Source of the DNA: Candidatus Kuenenia stuttgartensis
GTDB taxonomy: Bacteria; Planctomycetota; Brocadiia; Brocadiales; Brocadiaceae
Length of the DNA stretch: 32,000 bases
Direction of reading: 5' to 3'
Assembly: GCF_900232105.1 (NCBI RefSeq)
Contig: NZ_LT934425.1
Coordinates: 3,120,001-3,152,000 of the forward strand
Below the pieces are notes generated by a model. It was not told where the DNA came from and did not search any database. It saw nothing but the letters and a program-made list of their open reading frames with translations. The position numbers and the translations under genes were made by a program. The stretch's first letter is position 1; every line of letters begins with the position of its first letter. Positions 1,791-16,365 of the stretch are shown one piece after another.

Positions 1791-4349
1791 CTAAATAATT
1801 AGGTTGACTACTATATTTTCTAGCCGCGCAAGTTCCACCAATGTTTCAGCATCCACTAAAACCAAATATAGAACATTCTGAGCAGGTTCTCCCGTAAGCA
1901 TTATTGTCACGAGGTTTGGTTTGTTCTGTTCCAAAATGATGTCCTTTGTTCCATCTTCGTATCCATATACTGCATGAACTGCCTCACCTACATCATTCTT
2001 GCCAGATTTTACCGCCACTCGTACCCGTTTCTTTGTTTCCGAAGTTCCCAGAAGTTTCCGTTTAGCAGGCGATTTCCAAACAAGCTGTACAGAGAAAAGC
2101 CTGTTCGTGATTTTTGCTTTTTCCAAAATTATCTTGATTTCTGGCGCCGTTGGTAACGGTACAACTTCAGTTTTAGTGATTTTGATGATTGGAACAACCA
2201 TCTCTTGTAACGATATTCCGCCATGGAAATACGGATTCTCTGGTCCTTTAACCATAAAACATGCGATTCTACGTGGGAATACCAAATCGTAATTGCCAGA
2301 GAGTCCAACATCGCTTTCTTTAAAACGTATATACGCATTACTTGCCTGTCCGCCATTCCCAATCCATGCTCTACGATGAAGTGCGAGTTCTTCTCCGCCT
2401 GGTTTCTGTATCTTATTGCTTGGTTCGATTTCGTCTAGAAATATATAACCATGATCAGCAGTAACTATAAAGGTATCAACACCCAGTACCGATAAATTCA
2501 CTATGGCTCTGCGAATCTGCTCTAAAATGTCCTGCATGGTTCGATGTGCCAGCGTTGTATTCCCCCGTTCACATATCTCATCGATTTCCTGTGAAGTAAC
2601 CAATATAAAATTGCTTGCGGCAATCTGATCTTTAAGTTTTTTACGTGGTTTCTGAAGCGCCTCAATTTTTACCTCAACAACTTGTCCTTTTAAGTTTTTT
2701 GTCAGATAGTTTACTCTATCCTGCCGCGTAGTAATTATAGTATCACCGCACCTAACCGCCAATTTACCTTTGTTCTCCAGAATAGCAAAGTTTTCTTCTG
2801 CACCGGGGAGAAGGGATGCCATTCCCATTTCCGTAATTCCTGGGATTGTTGCGATAGCCGGTTTCAATTCGCTGTGAAAATCTGGCCCAAATCCCGATAC
2901 AAGTTCCGCGGCCATTTCATAGCGCAGTGCATCTACCCAGATATATGCTATCTTATGCTTACCAACTAGTGGCTTAACTTCCCTGCTAAAAGTATCGCGT
3001 TGAAGTTGAAAACCAAAGCCAAATTCCGGGAATTCTGAATCCTGTAAAAATTCTGCCAGATCACCAGCCATGTTTGTATAAAATTGCCGTGCTTTGGCAA
3101 TGACCTTTTCAATTGGGCTGTTTTCGTCCGAGAGATCTATATTATATCGCTCATATCTATGTTCCAGTTCACGATGAAACCTATCCAACTCATACCATGG
3201 TAAAGTAGTTCTGCAATAATTCTTAATCAAGTCTTTGGGTAAATATTTTTTACCTTTAAGTTCTTTTTTTATATCCCCGGTTTTGATACAAATACTAACG
3301 ACGGTCTCCAGGATACTCCATTTCAACATAAGCGTTTCTTCGGTACGCGGCCAAAATGAATCTTTTTGCGCATCAACTAATTGAGTAGCTTGAAGTAAAG
3401 CATTTTCTAAAATGAGTTTACAAGCCCAATCTATTAGCTTGCTTTCTGTTGATAAAAATGTCTGGGATTTGACAAGCTTTTCAGGTGGGATAGAGAATGC
3501 CGCAACATTGCATTTCTGATCAACCATCTTTGACACGTCAACATAAGAATCCTTATGCTCAATATCGCTTCGCCATCGCTGGGCAAGTTTTGATGTATTT
3601 TGCTTATGCGATTCCAGTGAAGGAATGTCCATTTGTGATATTACTGATGGAATGCCATCATCATCAATGTTGTTTACTAAATCTCCTAGCAATACATACC
3701 GAACGAACCTTTCCCTGGTCTTGTCAGGAATCTTATCTGTCGTGTCAAAGCCGAATGAGTTTTTGAGAATTGCCTGAAGTTCCTGTATTGCGTTTTTTTT
3801 GACGATATTGTCATCAATTTCCGGTTTTGTTAGAAATAGGTAAGCAATCTCTACCGGATCAATACTTCCGAAGATCAATTTTACCGTTCCTGATCCAATC
3901 TCAGCTCCATGTTCAGCGATACCCTCTACATCATCATAGGTCAGACTACCGGATGCAATCTGTTTGCAGATATTTTCTGCTGCATCTGGCATTATGGGCT
4001 TAAGCACTGCACGTGCTACAACCTCAAGGCGGGTATTCTGATTTATAGACGGATGACCCGGCTCAAGCACACAGCCGGCTTTCTCTATTTCTATAAGGGC
4101 GTTGTCAGTCTCGCTCCTTTCTTTCGCGACATAAACCAGTATTTTTGGTGGTGTTATTCCATCAAGCATCGGTTCTAACTGGTATTTGAGTTCAAAGAAG
4201 CTATCGTTAAAGTTGAACAGTTTTGCACCAGTGTTGAGTGTTTTAACGATCCCCTGATAGTGTTTCTCCGGATCATACCATACCACTATTCCGAAATCCT
4301 TCACCTGCTTTGTTATGAGTTCTTGAAGGTAATCGGTAATCTTACCCAT
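1791..4349 (-). CDS. pglZ: BREX alkaline-phosphatase-fold protein PglZ
   Basis: 852-aa track ORF. PglZ-type motifs AYIWVDALRYEM and FIVTADHGYIF. Positioned between brxC and brxL. Confidence 0.92.
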   Translation of the reverse strand: MGKITDYLQELITKQVKDFGIVVWYDPEKHYQGIVKTLNTGAKLFNFNDSFFELKYQLEPMLDGITPPKILVYVAKERSETDNALIEIEKAGCVLEPGHPSINQNTRLEVVARAVLKPIMPDAAENICKQIASGSLTYDDVEGIAEHGAEIGSGTVKLIFGSIDPVEIAYLFLTKPEIDDNIVKKNAIQELQAILKNSFGFDTTDKIPDKTRERFVRYVLLGDLVNNIDDDGIPSVISQMDIPSLESHKQNTSKLAQRWRSDIEHKDSYVDVSKMVDQKCNVAAFSIPPEKLVKSQTFLSTESKLIDWACKLILENALLQATQLVDAQKDSFWPRTEETLMLKWSILETVVSICIKTGDIKKELKGKKYLPKDLIKNYCRTTLPWYELDRFHRELEHRYERYNIDLSDENSPIEKVIAKARQFYTNMAGDLAEFLQDSEFPEFGFGFQLQRDTFSREVKPLVGKHKIAYIWVDALRYEMAAELVSGFGPDFHSELKPAIATIPGITEMGMASLLPGAEENFAILENKGKLAVRCGDTIITTRQDRVNYLTKNLKGQVVEVKIEALQKPRKKLKDQIAASNFILVTSQEIDEICERGNTTLAHRTMQDILEQIRRAIVNLSVLGVDTFIVTADHGYIFLDEIEPSNKIQKPGGEELALHRRAWIGNGGQASNAYIRFKESDVGLSGNYDLVFPRRIACFMVKGPENPYFHGGISLQEMVVPIIKITKTEVVPLPTAPEIKIILEKAKITNRLFSVQLVWKSPAKRKLLGTSETKKRVRVAVKSGKNDVGEAVHAVYGYEDGTKDIILEQNKPNLVTIMLTGEPAQNVLYLVLVDAETLVELARLENIVVNLII

Positions 4350-8027: not shown

Positions 8028-8041
8028 GCCTTTATATTAAA

Positions 8042-8419
8042 TTACTTTGCAAAGGATCTTACTATCTCGTTTATGACTTCTGTAATATCTACATTTTTGG
8101 AAGGTAAAACTTCATTTTGAATATGCTTGTGATGTGGATAGGTTTCAATTTCTGTATAATGTTCTGCATTATCATATCTAAAAATTAATTTCTTGTCATG
8201 AGCCTGATAATGATAGGAATAAGCCAGTCTTTTTAAAGCGGGGATAGCAATAAAGTACTCTTTAAAATGCAGTTCACTTTTATCAGCAAATATAATCTCT
8301 CCTTTGACATACAATGCAGCATCGCCTCTATTTTCCGACTGAACATTGGTAAGGAGTTTAAACGGCACATTACTGAGAAATTTATCCAATTGAGCAAGAT
8401 ACTCTTTTATGACTGACAT
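8042..8419 (-). CDS. DUF6516-like small protein (family labelled TumE toxin-like by some pipelines); candidate toxin/effector embedded in BREX
   Basis: 125-aa track ORF. C-terminal motif FRYDNAEHYTEIETYPHHKHIQ fits my recollection of the DUF6516 'RyDNapHH...PHHKH' signature. 13-nt overlap with the upstream 99-aa gene; 14 nt upstream of brxC. About 28-35% GC on sampled lines versus about 43% on one sampled brxC line. Family call is from memory, not searched. Confidence 0.6.
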   Translation of the reverse strand: MSVIKEYLAQLDKFLSNVPFKLLTNVQSENRGDAALYVKGEIIFADKSELHFKEYFIAIPALKRLAYSYHYQAHDKKLIFRYDNAEHYTEIETYPHHKHIQNEVLPSKNVDITEVINEIVRSFAK

Positions 8420-8706
8420 ATCTCAATGTTTTCAATTATTGACAATTTCTGTTTAAGTTCATTTACAAGTTTTTCTTCTGCCCACCAGTTAAAAGTATCA
8501 TCATCCTCTTCAATTTCCCTATTTCTGAACTTTTCAATGAAGACACTCGTAGAAATTCCGTATTTCTCTTCATATTTTTTTGTTTTTGATAAGGACATTT
8601 CAATGGCAAATTTTATTCTTCTTTTTTCCTCTTCCAGCCCTCCGGCCAGAAGTTCCTTAATTGTTTCTGCTTCACCTGAAATACTTTTTACATTTAAAGT
8701 AACCAT
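8407..8706 (-). CDS. Small acidic protein, candidate antitoxin/partner of the DUF6516-like protein
   Basis: 99-aa track ORF, translationally coupled (stop 8407-8409 overlaps the downstream ATG at 8419-8417). Helical, Glu/Lys-rich, ...KYEEKYGISTSVFIEKFRNREIEEDDDTFNWW... No family recognised with certainty. Confidence 0.5.
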   Translation of the reverse strand: MVTLNVKSISGEAETIKELLAGGLEEEKRRIKFAIEMSLSKTKKYEEKYGISTSVFIEKFRNREIEEDDDTFNWWAEEKLVNELKQKLSIIENIEICQS

Positions 8707-8793
8707 ATCATATTCACCTCTAAATAATTTTCATTTATTCACTACAATTCATTGGCTCCTGCATGGCAGGACAATAAATGCACAACTAAAAAC

Positions 8794-8828
8794 AGTCACA
8801 AATATGTCATTTGTGACTATCTATTATA
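8794..8828 (-). promoter_or_regulatory. -10-like TATAAT followed by a 10-5-10 inverted repeat (possible autoregulatory operator) upstream of the small-gene pair
   Basis: Minus strand reads ...CATTATAATAGAT AGTCACAAAT GACAT ATTTGTGACT. TATAAT = 8828..8823; perfect 10-bp arms at 8794-8818. The -35 is weak (TTACAC-like). Lies 88 bp upstream of the 99-aa start, downstream of the MITE. Confidence 0.3.
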
Positions 8829-8884
8829 ATGTTTTCTATAAAAATTTGTGTAAGAAATGGAGAAGAGAGAGAATAAAAGTTTTT

Positions 8885-9142
8885 GTAACGCTTTAGTTTT
8901 TTGTTTTTTGAAAAATCCAAGGGGACATAAAAAACAATGTAGCCCCGTTAGGGGCGATCTGTTTGTAGCACAATAAAATTCAATAGGGTAAATAGCTCCG
9001 TAGGAGCGGCCTGTATATGATTGACAGGAAAACAGGTCGCTCCTGACGGAGCTAATATCTGTTATGGCTCCTATCTTGCTACAAACAGGTTGTTCCTACG
9101 GAGTTTATAGGTAATACCTTTTTCAAAAGACTAAAGTGTTAC
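8885..9142. mobile_element. 258-bp MITE-like non-autonomous element inside the BREX operon
   Basis: Termini GTAACGCTTTAGTTTTTTG(TTTTTT)GAAAAA / TTTTTCAAAAGACTAAAGTGTTAC (inverted). Perfect 8-bp direct repeat AAGTTTTT at 8877-8884 and 9143-9150. Interior consists of nested small hairpins (AGCCCCGTTAGGGGCG, AGCTCCGTAGGAGCG, CGCTCCTGACGGAGCT). Confidence 0.75.
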
Positions 9143-9202
9143 AAGTTTTTTGATATTTGTTTTTTCCCCCTTTTCCCCTACTTCACCATTCCCCACTTTT
9201 TA

Positions 9203-12200
9203 TTATTCATAACCATGCGCTATGGCAAGGGATTTGTCCTTTTTGCATTTTGCTTTAACTCTTTCCGACCAATACTTCATTGCAATATGTGCCCAGTCAT
9301 ATTTACCAGATTCCAAATCTTTCCAGTATTTTGGAGGCTCGCTCCATGGTATCACAGTATGAAGCGGTGCCATGTTTAATATCACTCCATCGTCAAAGTT
9401 TGGATCGTAGCCCATCTTTGCAACCTTCTCCAGTTCCTCTTTGAACTCTGTTATCTCCTGCCTTAATTCATCTAGCTTTTCCAGTTCCTTTTCATAGGTT
9501 AGCTTATCTCTTCCGTCAGTATTTACGACCTTTTGAGATACCTCTAAAATCTGGCTGGAAATAAGGTTTAGCTTTGGCTCAACGTAGTTCCGTAATATTT
9601 TAAAAAGGGTGTCGTTATCCAATTTGTGATAATAGAGCCAAATTCCATAGTTTTTCTTTTTCGTTTGGAGAAGCCAATATATCGGTGCTTTGCGACGACT
9701 CTTTGAGTATCTTTTGATATGAAAGTCAAAGAATCTCTTTGGTTGCCTGAAATAGTCACGAAGGCTTTTTACATCAAGAATCTCCAATATCTCCCGCTCT
9801 CGTTCGTCCGCATGTTCACCATAGATTAAAACCAACACTTCATGCACTTTTTTTACAATATCATTGCTGTGTCCTTCATCATCAACTAAAATGCCGTTCC
9901 AATCAACCTGTATCGGGTAATCTTTGTCAGCAATAGTGGGATTTGGCACGTCCGTTGGAACATCAAGCACATTAACCCGCCTTTTTAGCCATGCTTCACT
10001 GACGATACTCCCCAAAGTCGCAGGATAACCATCTGGAGAGAGGAGCATTCCAGGTGAGCATACAGGCATCGGATCAAATGGGTTTGCGAGTTTTGGAATG
10101 AGTGATTTATCTAAAGCCATCCGCACATCCCAACGACCAAAGACGGCACCAATGCACCACATAAGCAGATTTTGAACACGATCAACAATGCTTTCGGAAA
10201 TGATCTCTTCTTCAGTTTCAGCTTTGTCTGATTCCTTTTCCACTTCATCTTGTACTTGAATAGTTTGTCCTAATTCGTGTTCAATAATTCTGCGATCAGT
10301 AAAATCAATATCATATAAGTCATAGATAATATTATTGACTTTCAACTGTATACAGACAATTTCATTATTTTTTTTGATTTCTTTCTCTTGAATATCTTCA
10401 CTCGTTTCTGATAAAGGGATGTTAATCAATCTAAGTAGAGGTGGAACTAAAAAAACATGAGTTGTTTCATCGCCGTAATAAAGTGATTGTTGACAATTAA
10501 CGATTTTTAACGACAATTCTGTTAATTTATCGACATTGGGTTTCTTAACTGGTATTCTCTGCACTTGACCAACTTCATAACCATGTTGAGCTCTTAGCAT
10601 CATAATAAACTTCTCAGTCAAGGTACTATTAAAAAAACCCAAAGCATTTAATAATCCAAATTCTGAGAAAATCGCTATTCCTTTATGGCTAAAAATACAA
10701 CCTGCGTTCATCTCTCTTGAATTGAAACGTCTATTTACTAATGGATATGTCAATCCAGAACGAAAGTAATAATCTGGATTTCTAATTACTGAACCTGCAA
10801 ACAAATACAGTTCTCTACCTTTATATTTATAATTTACTACCAAATGAATATCTGAATAATATGGAGAATACTCTCCACCCTTAACAAAAGTTGCCCATCT
10901 TTTATTTGCTGTCTGTTCTACGAAAATAGTTTGCTGCTCAGAAATATTTTCGTCTTTCACATTTAACCAATCAGCCCATTTTATTGCGTTAATATCTGTT
11001 GGTTTTACTTCCCAGTTTGCACGAACAAAACGAAAATCATCAGCAGTTGCAAGCCCTTGTTTTACTGTTCCCCCATTTCCTTCAAATGGTGGAAACTCCT
11101 TAAACTTATTCCTGATCCTATCGCAGACCCAATAGGAGAAAGGTGTATTCGGCACAAGGGAAAATGAGTCCAATTGTATATCAAAACGTTTCTCGCTTTG
11201 AGCATTCTGTATAGCTTCCAACAACTTTTCGCCTTTAGCATCAACATCATCCTTTAGTAATCTAAAGAAAATTGCTTTTCTTCCGGTTGCGGGAGTTTTT
11301 TCGATTGTATAAGCGGCTGTTTCAACCATCGCCTCAAGGACACCGAAACCAAAATCTGCAACGGCATGTAAACTTGATTCCTTCATCAGTATCTCTTCTC
11401 TCCACTTTGTAAAGCTAGAAAGGAAAAAGCCTGTCCTGCTTGAGATAATCCCAATAAAGCCTTTATCATGAAGCAATTGAAGGATCCGCTCTACAAATGC
11501 GGCATAAACATCATTTTTGGTTCGGGGGTATGTCTTGTCAATATATCCCCTAGACGGTAAGCTTGCTGCTCCAAACGGTGGATTCATCAAGACAACATCA
11601 AAGCGATTCTGCAACACTTCTACAAACTGAAACCCCCTGATTGATTCCTCTGCAAACAGCCGTCTGCTATAACCGTGATTTTCTGCTTTAACTTTCTCCG
11701 CATAATCTCTCAGGGCAGAAAAAACCTTCTCCTCTGCCTCTTTGAAGAAATCCTCATCTTTTATCTCTGATAAGGAGAGCGATAATTGCCTGGGCTCTGA
11801 TTTTCCAAAAAGGGGCACTTGAACCGGCTTCAGCGGGCCTTCCCATTTTCGCTTTGCCTCTTGTATTGCTGCTCTCAACTCCTGCTCTATTTGTAATAAT
11901 GAGCCTGCCTCACCAGCAAGCTTCATCTTTTCCCATACATTTCTCACCAGATCACCCAAAAGGGCAGGTTTTAGCGTGGAGACAAAATCCTCAAAAAGCT
12001 TCTGGTTACCTGGCATTGGTTCCGCACAAATAAAGTGTGCATTCCTTACTCTTGGTCTGTCTTCCCTGCGTATCTTGACCCACTCCCTCTGCGCCCTGAG
12101 CCAGAGGGCAAGGGCGGCAATCTGAATTGCTCTCAGGTCAATGTCTATGCCATAGAGGTTATTTTCGAGTATCAGGCGAGGGATCTCACGCTCAAATGCA

Positions 12201-13252
12201 TCTTTATCAGGATAATCTTTCTGTAATGCTATTCCCAGGTCTTTATCGTCATAAGCCTCTCTGTATATAATCATCAGCAGGTTAAATACATACAGCAGAA
12301 AATGCCCGCTACCGCATGCCGGATCAAGTATCTTTAGCAATCGCGGGTCTTTTTTCTCACGGAAAGGAACCTGAAAGCTATCTGCTTGTGCAGCCGGTTT
12401 TTCATCCCTCTGAAGGAATACCTCATTCCTGGGCTTGACCATATATTCGCAGTATTCTGAAAGCCTGGTATTCCCCTGCATAATCTCATACCACATCCTG
12501 CCGAGGGTATTATCAGTGAGAAACTGCACAACGTATCTTGGCGTATAGAATTGATTGCGGAATGCCAGTTCCCAGGAATTGCGTGGTGCAGAGCTTTCAG
12601 CCCTTGCCTGCTCCCTGATCTCTTTTGGCGTGAAATATTGATAAATCCACCCGATGGTTTCATCAAAATCCCATATATTGTCAATCTCCGGATTATTTAT
12701 GATTTCTAAAACAGCCTTTAATGCCCGCGGTCTTGGAAATACATAAGATGAAAGGTCTTCCTGGTCAAAGAGGACTTTAATCTCCTCTGCAACTTCTCTG
12801 CATTGGTACAAAATATAATCCTGGTAAGCAATGTCTATGTCATCAAGCTGTGATAAATCAGTCTTTTTTAACACATCCACCACGTAGTGGACGAAACCAT
12901 TGGATTTGCTGCCGCGGGAAACAGTCTCCCGGATGACCTTTCTCCGCTCCATGAGTTTCAAGGCCACAAGACGGTTCAGGTGGGTAAATGTCAAACCAAG
13001 TATCAATCTTTCCACAGCTTCATGTCTCTTGCTTCCGGCCACAGTTTCCCGCTCAATGACGTATGCAAATCCTTCACGGGCTTTTATTACGTTCTGATCA
13101 TCTTTGATTTGTGGCAAGCGGGAGATATCTTCGATAGTTCCATCTTTGTGCAGTCCAAATGCACCTTCAAGTAACTCACCTATCTCCTTTAAAAGCGCTT
13201 TACGCGCATCCTGCACCATCTTTTTTATTTTATTACGGATTTCTTTATCCAC
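9203..13252 (-). CDS. pglX: BREX N6-adenine DNA methyltransferase / specificity subunit PglX
   Basis: 1349-aa track ORF. SAM-binding motif I ILDPACGSGHFLL, catalytic motif IV VVLMNPPFG. Long C-terminal half as in type IIG/IIL-like PglX. 9 nt after brxB. Confidence 0.92.
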   Translation of the reverse strand: MDKEIRNKIKKMVQDARKALLKEIGELLEGAFGLHKDGTIEDISRLPQIKDDQNVIKAREGFAYVIERETVAGSKRHEAVERLILGLTFTHLNRLVALKLMERRKVIRETVSRGSKSNGFVHYVVDVLKKTDLSQLDDIDIAYQDYILYQCREVAEEIKVLFDQEDLSSYVFPRPRALKAVLEIINNPEIDNIWDFDETIGWIYQYFTPKEIREQARAESSAPRNSWELAFRNQFYTPRYVVQFLTDNTLGRMWYEIMQGNTRLSEYCEYMVKPRNEVFLQRDEKPAAQADSFQVPFREKKDPRLLKILDPACGSGHFLLYVFNLLMIIYREAYDDKDLGIALQKDYPDKDAFEREIPRLILENNLYGIDIDLRAIQIAALALWLRAQREWVKIRREDRPRVRNAHFICAEPMPGNQKLFEDFVSTLKPALLGDLVRNVWEKMKLAGEAGSLLQIEQELRAAIQEAKRKWEGPLKPVQVPLFGKSEPRQLSLSLSEIKDEDFFKEAEEKVFSALRDYAEKVKAENHGYSRRLFAEESIRGFQFVEVLQNRFDVVLMNPPFGAASLPSRGYIDKTYPRTKNDVYAAFVERILQLLHDKGFIGIISSRTGFFLSSFTKWREEILMKESSLHAVADFGFGVLEAMVETAAYTIEKTPATGRKAIFFRLLKDDVDAKGEKLLEAIQNAQSEKRFDIQLDSFSLVPNTPFSYWVCDRIRNKFKEFPPFEGNGGTVKQGLATADDFRFVRANWEVKPTDINAIKWADWLNVKDENISEQQTIFVEQTANKRWATFVKGGEYSPYYSDIHLVVNYKYKGRELYLFAGSVIRNPDYYFRSGLTYPLVNRRFNSREMNAGCIFSHKGIAIFSEFGLLNALGFFNSTLTEKFIMMLRAQHGYEVGQVQRIPVKKPNVDKLTELSLKIVNCQQSLYYGDETTHVFLVPPLLRLINIPLSETSEDIQEKEIKKNNEIVCIQLKVNNIIYDLYDIDFTDRRIIEHELGQTIQVQDEVEKESDKAETEEEIISESIVDRVQNLLMWCIGAVFGRWDVRMALDKSLIPKLANPFDPMPVCSPGMLLSPDGYPATLGSIVSEAWLKRRVNVLDVPTDVPNPTIADKDYPIQVDWNGILVDDEGHSNDIVKKVHEVLVLIYGEHADEREREILEILDVKSLRDYFRQPKRFFDFHIKRYSKSRRKAPIYWLLQTKKKNYGIWLYYHKLDNDTLFKILRNYVEPKLNLISSQILEVSQKVVNTDGRDKLTYEKELEKLDELRQEITEFKEELEKVAKMGYDPNFDDGVILNMAPLHTVIPWSEPPKYWKDLESGKYDWAHIAMKYWSERVKAKCKKDKSLAIAHGYE

Positions 13253-13261
13253 CAGAATACC

Positions 13262-13840
13262 TCAGTAAATTTTTACCCTGTAATTATAGCCGCTAATGCC
13301 CTCTATTTCCTGAATGTCCATGAACCTAAGCTCGTTTTCGCCTTCTCTTGCACCCGGGTAAAATAAAATCATAGGGACCATAGTTCGGCGGTGCATCTCG
13401 TCCAGAAGTTTACTCATACGGTAAATTGCTGGCGCCAGGGCTGCTGCCCGTGTAAGGAACACAATATCGATTTTGGGATTAAGCCCTTCCATAAGTTTTT
13501 GAAGCATATCAGGCAATGGGCTGAGCTTTGAGAGGATATTGTTTACAGTTGACTGTGTCCTTTGGAATCCAAATTTTTTCTCTGTTTGTATAACATAGGA
13601 TAACCCACGTGTTTTCTCAATTCCTTCCCATATGGATTTTGCCAGAGAAATGGTAGTAACCTTCCTTCCTTTATTGTTTAATCTGGTGGCTAAACGGGAG
13701 ACTTCTTCGCGTAGTTTATATTCTTCCTGCGGTGGATAGCAGAAGATGGCAAAGGGCAAATCATGGTATGCGCTGATACGTAAGGGGTCTGATACCAAAT
13801 CCTGTTCCAGATTATCAATACGCTCCCGAAGCGATGTCAT
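13262..13840 (-). CDS. brxB: BREX protein BrxB (DUF1788)
   Basis: 192-aa track ORF. ...YHDLPFAIFCYPPQEEYKLREEV... resembles DUF1788. Sits between brxA and pglX; 26-nt overlap with the brxA end. Confidence 0.85.
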   Translation of the reverse strand: MTSLRERIDNLEQDLVSDPLRISAYHDLPFAIFCYPPQEEYKLREEVSRLATRLNNKGRKVTTISLAKSIWEGIEKTRGLSYVIQTEKKFGFQRTQSTVNNILSKLSPLPDMLQKLMEGLNPKIDIVFLTRAAALAPAIYRMSKLLDEMHRRTMVPMILFYPGAREGENELRFMDIQEIEGISGYNYRVKIY

Positions 13841-14603
13841 GAGCTAACTCCTCCGTTGAATGATAGGGAAATTCTATGCGGATGAGCCTTCCAGCGGCAT
13901 GGTATTTCAGGTATCCTGTCTGATGCGATTCAAGAAACATACGTTCCACGGCCTGGGGTTTGAGGAGAAACAACTTCCAATCCTCATTTTGAATAATAAG
14001 CTCTCCGGTAGAAACCCGTGAATGGATAAGAAATGCAACATACGCAAATGCTTCAATGGGCAGGTAGAAGTTGGCTATCTGTTTTTTCGACTTACCTTCC
14101 AATATACCAAAGTCCCTCAGAGTTGACATTACCCCCCGTGATAGCCTTCCCTTTACTGAATCACTCCACATCTGGTCAAACATGCCGGGTTTTGCACTTT
14201 CTATAAATTTGTATACATCTCCTGATGAAATAGCAAGTTGTCCTGCGTAATATCGGTCAAAAAGATCAAGGATCACGAAATCATAAAAGAAATCGTCAAT
14301 TTTTGCTGTGTGATAATACATAATAGAGCGGATAATGGATAAATCAACATTTTTAGCGCATAAAATTTTCAGAGCCTTCCATGCATAGCTTGACTCTTTT
14401 GTAACAAACCGGGCGAGGAAATATCGTTTAACAATCTCATTGGTCCATGAACGGGATCTCTTTCCTAAAACATTTTTGCGCACGATCTGCTCCACCCACG
14501 TATTAATATCTACCGCAGGATCGAATATATCTAATAAAATGCGCGTTTCATCAATGAATGCGCCGCCGTGTGCTAACCATGTCATGTATTTTTTTTCTGC
14601 CAT
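13815..14603 (-). CDS. brxA: BREX protein BrxA (DUF1819-like)
   Basis: 262-aa track ORF, first gene of the cluster. N-terminal pattern Y..WL..GGAFIDETRILL....W...I...NVLGKRS fits my recollection of DUF1819. Longer than typical BrxA. Confidence 0.75.
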   Translation of the reverse strand: MAEKKYMTWLAHGGAFIDETRILLDIFDPAVDINTWVEQIVRKNVLGKRSRSWTNEIVKRYFLARFVTKESSYAWKALKILCAKNVDLSIIRSIMYYHTAKIDDFFYDFVILDLFDRYYAGQLAISSGDVYKFIESAKPGMFDQMWSDSVKGRLSRGVMSTLRDFGILEGKSKKQIANFYLPIEAFAYVAFLIHSRVSTGELIIQNEDWKLFLLKPQAVERMFLESHQTGYLKYHAAGRLIRIEFPYHSTEELAHDIASGAY

Positions 14604-14809: not shown

Positions 14810-14947
14810 GTAACACTTTAGTTTTTTGAAAAATTCCAATAATCGCAATGTAGGGGCGAAGCATTTGCTGTAAATTGTCATAAATGCGTTCATACCCAAA
14901 ACGGGCAAATGCTTCGCCCCTACTTTTTCAAAAAACTAAAGTGTTAC
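14810..14947. mobile_element. 138-bp MITE, copy A
   Basis: Perfect 24-bp terminal inverted repeats GTAACACTTTAGTTTTTTGAAAAA. Inner 19-bp inverted repeat GTAGGGGCGAAGCATTTGC / GCAAATGCTTCGCCCCTAC. Perfect 8-bp TSD GGACAAAG at 14802-14809 and 14948-14955. Confidence 0.85.
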
Positions 14948-14962
14948 GGACAAAGGCGTTTA

Positions 14963-15829
14963 TCAAATTAAGTAGATGATGAACTGTATCAGATACCACT
15001 CATCGGGGTATAATCCCTTCTGCCCAGATAAATCAATCTGATGATAAGTTTTGAGCGATACCATCTCACGATGATTGGAGTTAGCTAGTTCTTCGGCCTC
15101 ATCAGCCTGGAAAGTAAACTTTCAGTCAGAAGTATTGCAACATGAGCGACACACACGTGGAAGTGAGGTGTACCCCATTGTCAAGACAGATTTGATCGAT
15201 GCGCTTCCCTCTTGTTTGTAGCTATAGTAGTAGAAGGCTTTGAAAGGATCCAACAGATCAACTATTCGGGCTTGTATCTTCTGATTTCACTCCCCGTAAG
15301 CCGGAAATACTTCGCATGCTTTGTTGAGTTTATCTTTTTCAAAGTATGCTTTGTATGCAACAATCGATCCTTTAGTGTCAAGGTGTTTTTTCAATAGCTT
15401 TAATAATTCCGGACGTGGATCGTCTTTGCCTTCTGCCAAATAACTGATGTGCTCAAGTTTACTCTTTGGTGATGCTTGAATATGAAGCGAGAACTGAAAT
15501 GGAATCTGTTGATACGGCTTTACAGAATCAAACATCAGTATTGCAGTTCCGATAGTCTCAAAATCAAAATCAAGGTAACACTTTAGTTTTTTGAAAAATT
15601 CCAATAATAACGATATTTTGCCGAACGATGTAGGGGCGAAGCATTTGCATGCTTGGGCATGAACGCATGTATGCCCGTTATAGCAAATGCTTCGCCCCTA
15701 CGTTTTCAAAAAATTAAATTGTTACAAATCAAGATTATAATTGTAATCTCTATTTAAGTAAAATTCTCCAAAAAACGCAGCTTTTCTACAGTATAGTAAT
15801 TCCAATGCATACAGGGTTTCTTGAATAAT
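14963..15829 (-). pseudogene. DUF2779-family (nuclease-like) gene remnant, interrupted by MITE copy B and carrying a frameshift and an in-frame stop
   Basis: Minus-strand translation gives ...NLDFDFETIGTAILMFDSVKPYQQIPFQFSLH...AYKAYFEKDKLNKACEVFPAYGE*. After a frameshift it reads RIVDLLDPFKAFYYYSYKQEGSASIKSVL, then an in-frame TGA. 'lDFEt..PyqqiPFQFSlH' and 'GS.SIK.VL' fit my recollection of DUF2779. The reading frame continues across the MITE once one TSD copy is removed. The bulk of the N-terminal part is missing (stop at 15830-15832). Confidence 0.65.
15575..15725. mobile_element. 151-bp MITE, copy B (inserted in the DUF2779 gene)
   Basis: Same TIRs and inner 19-bp inverted repeat as copy A. 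Perfect 8-bp TSD AAATCAAG at 15567-15574 and 15726-15733. The central loop is in reverse orientation relative to copies A and C. Confidence 0.85.
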
Positions 15830-16214: not shown

Positions 16215-16365
16215 GTAACACTTTAGCCTTTTGAAAAATTCCAACAATAACGATGTTTGCCGCATAGTGTAGGGGCGAAGCATTTGCCATAAATTGTCAT
16301 AAATGCGTTCATACCCAAACTGGCAAATGCTTCGCCCCTACTTTTTCAAAAAACTAAATTGTTAC
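16215..16365. mobile_element. 151-bp MITE, copy C (no target-site duplication)
   Basis: TIRs GTAACACTTTAGCCTTTTGAAAAA / TTTTTCAAAAAACTAAATTGTTAC and the same inner 19-bp inverted repeat. Flanks GTCAATTT versus AAAAAACA do not match. Confidence 0.75.

Follow-up and report, generated by a model that had tools for sequence, protein, structure and literature searches.

A TumE–TumA cassette inserted in the type 1 BREX operon of Candidatus Kuenenia stuttgartensis is probably a captured mobile toxin–antitoxin module

Introduction

When a toxin–antitoxin gene pair lies inside a bacteriophage exclusion (BREX) operon, does it serve that operon or has it settled there as a guest? This question is raised by a 32,000-nt stretch of the genome of the anammox Planctomycete Candidatus Kuenenia stuttgartensis (contig NZ_LT934425.1, positions 3,120,001 to 3,152,000; hereafter the window, numbered from its first letter), in which two small overlapping genes, tumA-like and tumE (together TumAE), separate pglX from brxC. 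A first-pass annotation, made from the sequence alone, had described the pair as an AT-rich toxin–antitoxin cassette of later acquisition with a toxin of the DUF6516 family. Our analysis upholds the assignment to that toxin family, and indicates with fairly good confidence that a mobile type II TumE–TumA cassette was captured in a BREX cargo slot, where it most likely acts as an accessory that maintains itself, separate from the BREX components. Comparison loci, contigs and proteins are cited below by their labels (L001, P0050 and so on).

The family is better characterized than the first-pass annotation held when it called experimental work on DUF6516 essentially absent, a statement now out of date, as six pairs have been assayed. 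Six DUF6516 proteins arrest the growth of E. coli, and co-expression of the partner encoded upstream rescues it (Durairaj et al., 2023, Nature, PMC10584680). One toxin, Allochromatium tepidum TumE, blocks methionine incorporation in labelling experiments, i.e., translation, and the system was named TumE–TumA, with an RNase activity that is conjectured and unproven (PMC10584680). For other TumE–TumA pairs, a high-confidence multimer model accompanies the neutralization result (PMC10584680).

Organization of the cassette

The two genes are laid out as follows.

8407..8706, minus strand: tumA-like antitoxin gene; open reading frame (ORF) of 99 aa, isoelectric point 4.9, three-helix protein
8042..8419, minus strand: tumE toxin gene; ORF of 125 aa, PF20126 (formerly DUF6516)

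Both ORFs were confirmed as first described. The last 13 nt of tumA are also the first 13 of tumE (8407..8419, minus strand), an overlap that recurs in the homologous pairs L001-L006 and that, judging from the sequence, amounts to translational coupling. From the tumE stop to the first possible brxC ATG (8027) there are 14 nt, again as first described; the brxC start picked by gene callers in other assemblies lies 23 nt past the tumE stop. All genes are on the minus strand, along which brxA, brxB and pglX come first; 496 nt of intergenic DNA then lead to the 99-aa and 125-aa genes, and brxC, pglZ and brxL follow.

The TumE protein

The 125-aa protein matches the Pfam family PF20126 (Toxin TumE, formerly DUF6516) with 80.9 bits, well over the gathering threshold of 23.4 (E = 7e-23), residues 42-121 aligning with profile positions 1-78 of 81. 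The motif FRYDNAEHYTEIETYPHHKH, in which the DUF6516 signature had been recognized, is found in the protein and forms the conserved core of the TumE family, and the hidden Markov model search bears that recognition out. The NCBIfam TumE model (NF045777) is matched over its full length with 72.8 bits (residues 2-119 on positions 4-122 of 122), as is the PADLOC model PDC-M44B (E = 1.4e-21, 74.9 bits). Identity with a toxin TumE annotated by the Prokaryotic Genome Annotation Pipeline (PGAP) on a Nostoc plasmid is 29% end to end, with motifs common to both proteins. By profile score, the 125-aa protein is to be classed as a homologue, not an equivalog, of validated TumE (NF045777). Among 36 homologues, E54, Y67, Y69, F80, R81, D83, N84, A85 and H99 are invariant, while conservation reaches 90% or more at H70, Y71, H87, P95, H97 and K98; the window protein has every one of these residues. 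Its AlphaFold model (predicted local distance difference test, pLDDT, 95.1) comprises a helix at residues 3-16, seven strands and a helix at residues 112-124, which is the TumE family fold of two helices on a seven-stranded antiparallel sheet (fold description in PMC10584680). A PADLOC match of TumE to 'Cas3d' (E = 0.0044) is weak and was taken as chance.

The TumA protein

The 99-aa protein reaches the TumA family less directly. Its own match to NCBIfam TumA (NF045776) is weak (18.4 bits, E = 0.0018, residues 42-88 on positions 22-68 of 76), that to PADLOC PDC-M44A is equally weak (E = 8.8e-4, 17.5 bits, residues 42-88), and an hhalign comparison with one Nostoc TumA is marginal (E = 0.0095, probability 4%). 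The family as a whole connects more firmly. A profile of the 99-aa family drew 331 relatives from 1.84 billion cluster representatives, and 136 of the 150 best profile relatives match NCBIfam TumA (E of 0.01 or less; best E = 3.7e-21). In 62 of 80 metagenomic TumE loci, with TumE proteins down to about 32% identity, the ORF directly upstream matches the 99-aa family profile. Gene order and short overlap are also those of annotated tumA-tumE pairs. Through these intermediate profile relatives, the 99-aa protein is identified as a divergent TumA, in keeping with the first-pass proposal of an antitoxin-family partner. It is acidic and helical, as had been described: the model (pLDDT 91.5) has three helices and an unstructured N-terminus. 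Taken together, the Pfam, NCBIfam and PADLOC matches and the modelled fold confirm the family assignment of a toxin–antitoxin cassette with a DUF6516/TumE toxin.

Structure comparison of the TumA model gave a single neighbour, HP1531 of Helicobacter pylori (PDB 1zke, function unassigned), with a template modelling (TM) score of 0.56-0.68, a probability of 0.94 and an E-value of about 0.85; it gave no functional lead, and on the model the likeness may reflect a shared small three-helix family. Pfam matches of TumA to CBM_4_9_1, DUF6123 and Stathmin are weak and were taken as chance.

Both genes are under purifying selection, with ratios of nonsynonymous to synonymous substitution (dN/dS) of 0.06-0.26 for tumE and 0.09-0.15 for tumA. 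This bears on the possibility that the pair consists of chance ORFs or is a dead relic, which an AT-rich region, and loss of the cassette in the sister lineage L115 (see below), might suggest. With both ORFs intact, strong family matches, all invariant residues kept, both models confident and the genes 99-100% conserved across many assemblies, that explanation is disfavoured and extremely improbable.

Insertion and mobility of the cassette

That the cassette is a later arrival, as first proposed, is best shown by a relative that lacks it. In L117 (BrxC 56% identical), the same order brxA-brxB-pglX-brxC-pglZ-brxL is found with 7 nt from the pglX stop to the brxC start and nothing between them. 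Given this tight junction, Kuenenia carries a 1,175-nt insertion, and DNA homology to copies of the cassette elsewhere delimits the part of it that moves.

8028..9202, minus strand: whole 1,175-nt insertion, with repeat cluster, promoter-like region and tumAE cassette, defined by comparison with L117
8756..8043 of the window: matched by cassette copy L003, 90% DNA identity
8710..8026 of the window: matched by cassette copy L001 (Jettenia), 88% DNA identity
8723..8060 of the window: matched by cassette copy L004, 76% DNA identity

In the copies from unrelated contexts, homology extends no further than both genes plus a short leader and breaks off sharply at 8756 and 8043. Because it is confined in this way, the mobile unit would measure about 0.7 kb, i.e., two overlapping genes and a leader of at most 50 nt. 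No recombinase gene was found among the genes called beside the fetched cassette copies.

Base composition had been the original ground for inferring acquisition. The drop in GC content is real (0.317 in the 99-aa gene, 0.325 in the 125-aa gene and 0.349 in the 496-nt intergenic region), but the 43-50% given for the neighbours was too high, as brxC stands at 0.443, pglX at 0.407, pglZ at 0.408 and the whole window at 0.407. Windows of 665 nt as AT-rich as the cassette make up 1.75% of the total, and all of them fall inside the cassette or in one variable pglX segment. The cassette also lies 3-10 points under its flanks in ten of ten other hosts checked; low GC is thus a trait of the tumAE family in all hosts checked and not by itself proof of recent arrival, and GC alone as such proof was rejected.

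The cassette can also be lost. In the sister lineage L115 (BrxC 90% identical), only tumE codons 101-125 are left (L115:94-168), with intact brxC-pglZ-brxL behind them, and this near-deletion indicates that the downstream BREX genes can persist when the cassette goes. Part of a 99-nt repeat, described below for the region upstream of brxA, abuts the truncated tumE there (L115, nt 70-98).

Further fragments were seen elsewhere. P0050 is a chimera in which the N-terminus of TumA is fused to the C-terminal two-thirds of TumE, and the Jettenia toxin–antitoxin island also carries, apart from the cassette, 59 nt from the tumA/tumE overlap region with 98% identity to window 8453..8395 (L001:7212-7270). 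These two, together with P0077, look like products of cassette decay. The copy in L003, which is not in a BREX locus, sits 130 nt downstream of a tRNA-Leu(CAG) gene (L003:9500-9583). Transfer RNA genes are typical integration hotspots.

Distribution of relatives and the question of a defence role

The Kuenenia pair belongs to a divergent TumE–TumA clade centred on anammox and other Planctomycetes. Close copies (74-90% identity) occur in unrelated, mostly non-defence contexts: L001 and L002 have theirs within a Jettenia island of PIN/HTH toxin–antitoxin genes, L003 next to RtcR and a methyltransferase, L004 close to MNT/HEPN genes and a group II intron, and L020 and L021 beside housekeeping genes. 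Among the 80 metagenomic loci (27 of at least 5 kb), searched with the window proteins, none has BREX genes. Their 109 larger neighbours, surveyed as aggregated family counts, are heterogeneous and mostly metabolic, with ATPase-, helicase- or restriction-like families in the minority. Homologues occur on eleven cyanobacterial plasmids and one archaeal provirus, and relatives in viral contigs numbered 0 among 2.9 million. The first-pass annotation had tied its proposal to enrichment near defence genes; for this clade the distribution is instead largely random, the neighbours being mostly non-defence.

In one group of relatives, a TumA–TumE pair (34% identity) follows a 1078-aa type IIG restriction-modification enzyme by 27 nt on the same strand (L085:6401-10381; also L081 and L084), an arrangement that parallels the place of the window pair after the type IIG-like PglX.

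These neighbourhoods bear directly on whether TumA–TumE is a dedicated abortive-infection back-up for BREX, parallel to the embedded PARIS or BrxU. Under this scheme the pair would be silent until a phage stops host transcription or BREX itself, for example with an Ocr-like inhibitor; labile TumA would then decay, TumE would halt translation, and the infected cell would die. The embedding, co-orientation and tight linkage to brxC fit such a role, as do the conserved arrangement across Kuenenia assemblies, the L085 pair 27 nt behind its restriction-modification enzyme, and RNase-type cargo (HEPN, MNT-HEPN, Schlafen) at equivalent junctions in BREX relatives (compare PMC12839542). There is also precedent for the position, which the first-pass annotation had implied to be lacking. 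Payne et al. (2024, bioRxiv 10.1101/2024.01.29.577857) drew 145 phage defence candidates (PDCs) from cassettes embedded in BREX, in the defence island system associated with restriction-modification (DISARM) and in type I restriction-modification loci, and PDC-M44, a two-gene cassette of that set, is this cassette type in PADLOC; PDCs are candidates. However, the close homologues stand in toxin–antitoxin islands or beside housekeeping genes, the metagenomic loci are devoid of BREX genes and have mostly non-defence neighbours, the cassette has decayed in L115 while BREX is intact, and literature searches found no phage data for any TumE–TumA pair. We therefore consider a dedicated back-up unlikely. 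An abortive-infection benefit of TumAE is possible, and a defence or regulatory role is plausible, supported by neither distribution nor conservation. The three functions offered in the first-pass annotation (abortive-infection back-up, operon-addiction module, regulator of the downstream genes) are candidate roles.

The intergenic region and a possible link to BREX expression

Upstream of tumA and between tumE and brxC, the following elements were found.

8707..8756, minus strand: conserved cassette leader with Shine-Dalgarno GAGGTGA (8720..8714), defined by DNA homology to L003
8028..8041, minus strand: 14-nt spacer with AAAGG ribosome-binding-like motif and no promoter space, from the sequence
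8823..8852, minus strand: sigma-70-like match TACACA-18 nt-TATAAT, 10/12 positions, 117 nt upstream of tumA, from a consensus scan
8794..8818, no strand assigned: perfect 10-nt inverted repeat AGTCACAAAT-N5-ATTTGTGACT, directly after the -10-like hexamer; 0.05 matches expected by chance
8940..9103, no strand assigned: four hairpin units of about 30 nt, GCTCCGTNAGGAGC then CCTGTTT / CCTGTTTGTAGCA-like, in both (alternating) orientations; two terminator-like

With 14 nt between tumE and brxC, brxC-pglZ-brxL is probably transcribed through the cassette. From the sequence, that transcript could start at the promoter-like site upstream of tumA or arise by read-through from pglX. Promoter-like matches are no more numerous in this region than expected from shuffled sequence, which makes the match no more than a lead. 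The inverted repeat, unique in the window, could be an operator or a stem-loop; it was not found upstream of the non-BREX cassette copies, which have no conserved operator in common. Since the palindrome is not common to the other copies and TumA shows no recognizable DNA-binding fold, its use as a TumA operator is only a possibility.

On these elements one could build an expression gate, in which the hairpins cut brxC-pglZ-brxL off from pglX, a promoter upstream of tumA drives them, and TumA or TumAE represses it through the 8794-8818 palindrome, so that BREX restriction capacity would be tied to the toxin–antitoxin state. Such a gate would account for a tumE–brxC gap without promoter space, an ancestral pglX–brxC junction of 7 nt, an excess of terminator-like hairpins after pglX (5 against 1.2 in shuffled sequence) and a promoter-like match followed by a perfect, unique inverted repeat; DeepFRI moreover predicts DNA binding for TumA partners (PMC10584680). 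Nevertheless, both palindrome and promoter-like site fall outside the DNA common to cassette copies, promoter matches are at chance level, and read-through from pglX would serve as well. The TumA model, whose best match is HP1531, has none of the ribbon-helix-helix (RHH), helix-turn-helix (HTH), AbrB or Phd folds by structure comparison, which leaves autoregulation unsupported. The gate is thus highly unlikely. Somewhat easier to credit, and still distinctly unlikely, is the broader proposal that TumA–TumE is wired into the Kuenenia BREX, with the promoter and palindrome upstream of tumA gating brxC-pglZ-brxL and TumE acting as a translation-arresting back-up when phage blocks BREX or host transcription. 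Were it true, the TumE family would gain its first demonstrated role in defence, and a toxin–antitoxin system would be seen to control the restriction half of BREX.

In many independent Kuenenia assemblies the sequence breaks off at 8936/8946, by the hairpin cluster, and contig L026 departs from the window at 9017, where it joins unrelated sugar-nucleotide genes; the breaks and this divergence suggest a dispersed repeat or a rearrangement point. The cluster at 8940-9103 is probably a dispersed repeat resembling repetitive extragenic palindromes or miniature inverted-repeat transposable elements (REP/MITE-like), or a recombination point. An Rfam search of the intergenic region returned only a sub-threshold plant microRNA match, and no relics of the relatives' cargo were found in the 496 nt (tblastn with the cargo genes; blastn against all loci).

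The BREX host locus and its cargo slots

The host system is a type 1 BREX with all six core genes (brxA, brxB, brxC, pglX, pglZ and brxL), five of them identified by PADLOC, with brxL complete in L023.

14603..13815, minus strand: brxA, PADLOC model
13840..13262, minus strand: brxB, PADLOC model
9203..13252, minus strand: pglX, upstream of the cassette, PADLOC PglX, 1248 bits
4365..8027, minus strand: brxC, 1220-aa ORF directly downstream of the cassette, PADLOC BrxC E = 1.2e-255
4349..1791, minus strand: pglZ, PADLOC model
start near 1779, continuing past the window start, minus strand: brxL, Lon-like, complete in L023

The order in Kuenenia is non-canonical, with pglX before brxC, the canonical order being brxA-brxB-brxC-pglX-pglZ-brxL. 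More distant BREX relatives, with 42-55% identity in BrxC, follow the canonical order, and their junctions between genes are occupied by other cargo.

L007, L008, L012, L015, L118: RiboL-PSP-HEPN cargo
L012: MNT+HEPN pair cargo
L011: DUF4145 cargo
L016: DUF3800 cargo
L015: GmrSD+HNH enzyme cargo
L008, L119: Schlafen/AlbA_2 cargo
L016: AAA_21 ATPase cargo

Auxiliary RNase and nuclease effectors have been published for BREX loci (PMC12839542), and the Kuenenia TumAE is one more occupant of the BREX cargo slot in that published picture. A term search for TumE and DUF6516 in the main text of that paper matched only the name of a reference author.

Several variations on this layout were observed. 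L007 (Ktedonobacterales) has two pglX copies, one on either side of brxC. In L116:2-957 (BrxC 68% identical), brxC is immediately preceded by a pair of ORFs, one of at least 125 aa and one of 191 aa; these have no match in Pfam or to the brxA, brxB, pglX or tumAE of the window and may be another unknown cargo. Just past the window start, L023:19043-19758 holds a Polbeta/MNT and HepT-like (HEPN) pair directly downstream of brxL, which means that the BREX island is flanked by a second toxin–antitoxin module.

The pglX gene is itself variable. Its segment 10176-10812 is a second AT-rich island (GC about 0.31) and has no alignment with L027, which is otherwise 98-99.8% identical; from the sequence it looks like a swapped target-recognition region, with strain-level variation in specificity. 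In L024, L025 and L028 the gene is split (213+1092 aa; 96+343+727 aa), against an intact 1349 aa in the window, and the fragments could reflect frameshifts, phase variation or assembly errors.

Upstream of brxA, two copies of the 99-nt repeat (14849-14947 and 16268-16365), about 95% identical to copies in L023, flank a region with what seems to be a decayed gene, a 105-aa fragment of a DUF2779 (nuclease-like) gene (15287-15604). Elsewhere the window contains housekeeping genes, e.g., for cytochromes, thioredoxin-reductase-like proteins and S-adenosylmethionine synthetase, and no tRNA genes.

The arrangement is stable within Kuenenia. The 99-aa protein has 100% identity to one annotated from this species. 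Over the BREX region, ten contigs of independent assemblies match the window with 99-100% identity, and those reaching upstream of the cassette, with the exception of L026, keep the layout of brxA-brxB-pglX, gap, 99-aa gene, 125-aa gene and brxC-pglZ-brxL.

A model for the origin and action of the cassette

The events that would explain this locus can be set out in order. A mobile unit of about 0.7 kb would have landed in the tight pglX–brxC junction of the Kuenenia type 1 BREX operon, where it would now be part of a 1.17-kb insertion. By analogy with the assayed members of the family, TumE, a small alpha+beta protein with conserved Tyr, His, Arg and Asp residues on neighbouring strands, would arrest growth by blocking translation, and TumA, made from the overlapping upstream gene, would neutralize it by direct binding. 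Being co-oriented with brxC-pglZ-brxL and 14 nt ahead of them, the cassette is probably co-transcribed with these genes. Its most likely role is that of a self-maintaining accessory.

Several points weigh against this account of the pair as a captured accessory module. On the side of family assignment, the 125-aa protein falls under the NCBIfam equivalog cut-off (72.8 against 90 bits) and the 99-aa protein far under its own (18.4 against 100 bits), no solved structure resembles TumE (Foldseek best E = 0.57; sequence-profile best E = 0.26), and the TumA model, as described, shows no RHH, HTH, AbrB or Phd fold. The assayed TumE proteins are gammaproteobacterial, whereas the Kuenenia host is an anammox Planctomycete and its pair is known from sequence. 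On the side of function, Payne et al. (bioRxiv 10.1101/2024.01.29.577857) argue that a gene embedded in a defence locus is usually a defence gene itself, and the strict conservation (99-100%) across many Kuenenia assemblies would also be expected from a functional link to BREX.

The captured, accessory module nonetheless remains our preferred reading, and we regard it as probable. It gives a well-delimited natural case of TumE–TumA in BREX, in an anammox bacterium of environmental importance that is genetically intractable, and the insert-free L117 and the decayed L115 are comparators that would allow embedded toxin–antitoxin modules to be tested as defence genes or as hitch-hikers. It also marks the limits of guilt by embedding, given that the same cassette (74-90%) is mostly found in non-defence contexts. 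The locus brings no new protein family, fold or principle; it is a new example of a known pattern.

Comparison with known systems

The first system to compare is the TumE–TumA superfamily. The Kuenenia toxin has the same Pfam domain, the motifs YxYHY, FRYDNA and PHHKH and the same fold, and its gene is preceded and overlapped by that of the antitoxin, with the partner placed in the same family by transitive profiles. In contrast, the Kuenenia pair represents a divergent clade, with about 29% identity to the PGAP-named TumE and both proteins below the NCBIfam cut-offs. Its TumA is also longer, 99 aa against about 76 aa in the superfamily, the difference being due to some 20 additional residues at the N-terminus.

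Accessory modules nested in type 1 BREX are the second point of reference. PARIS (ariAB) embedded in Salmonella BREX (PMC11341690), which the first-pass annotation rightly cited as a precedent, and BrxU of the pEFER BREX island resemble the Kuenenia cassette in being co-oriented with the host operon, and both are thought to be BREX back-ups. They are unrelated to TumAE in composition, PARIS consisting of an ABC ATPase and a Toprim nuclease and BrxU being a GmrSD type IV restriction enzyme. Anti-phage activity has been demonstrated for BrxU, and for PARIS in other hosts, with none from the PARIS copy embedded in Salmonella BREX. The HEPN/MNT, RiboL-PSP-HEPN and Schlafen cargo (PMC12839542) is similar in comprising small RNase- or toxin–antitoxin-type accessories at core BREX junctions; it belongs to another protein family, and for TumE an RNase activity is only conjectured.

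PDC-M44 is a further point of reference. It has two genes in the same A-then-B order, and both Kuenenia proteins match its A and B models by E-value, not by PADLOC thresholds; the modest scores (74.9 and 17.5 bits) imply that these models were built without the Kuenenia pair as a seed. The match therefore indicates that TumAE-type cassettes have become embedded in such systems at least once elsewhere, and the Kuenenia pair is itself an embedded case like the cassettes by which PDCs were defined.

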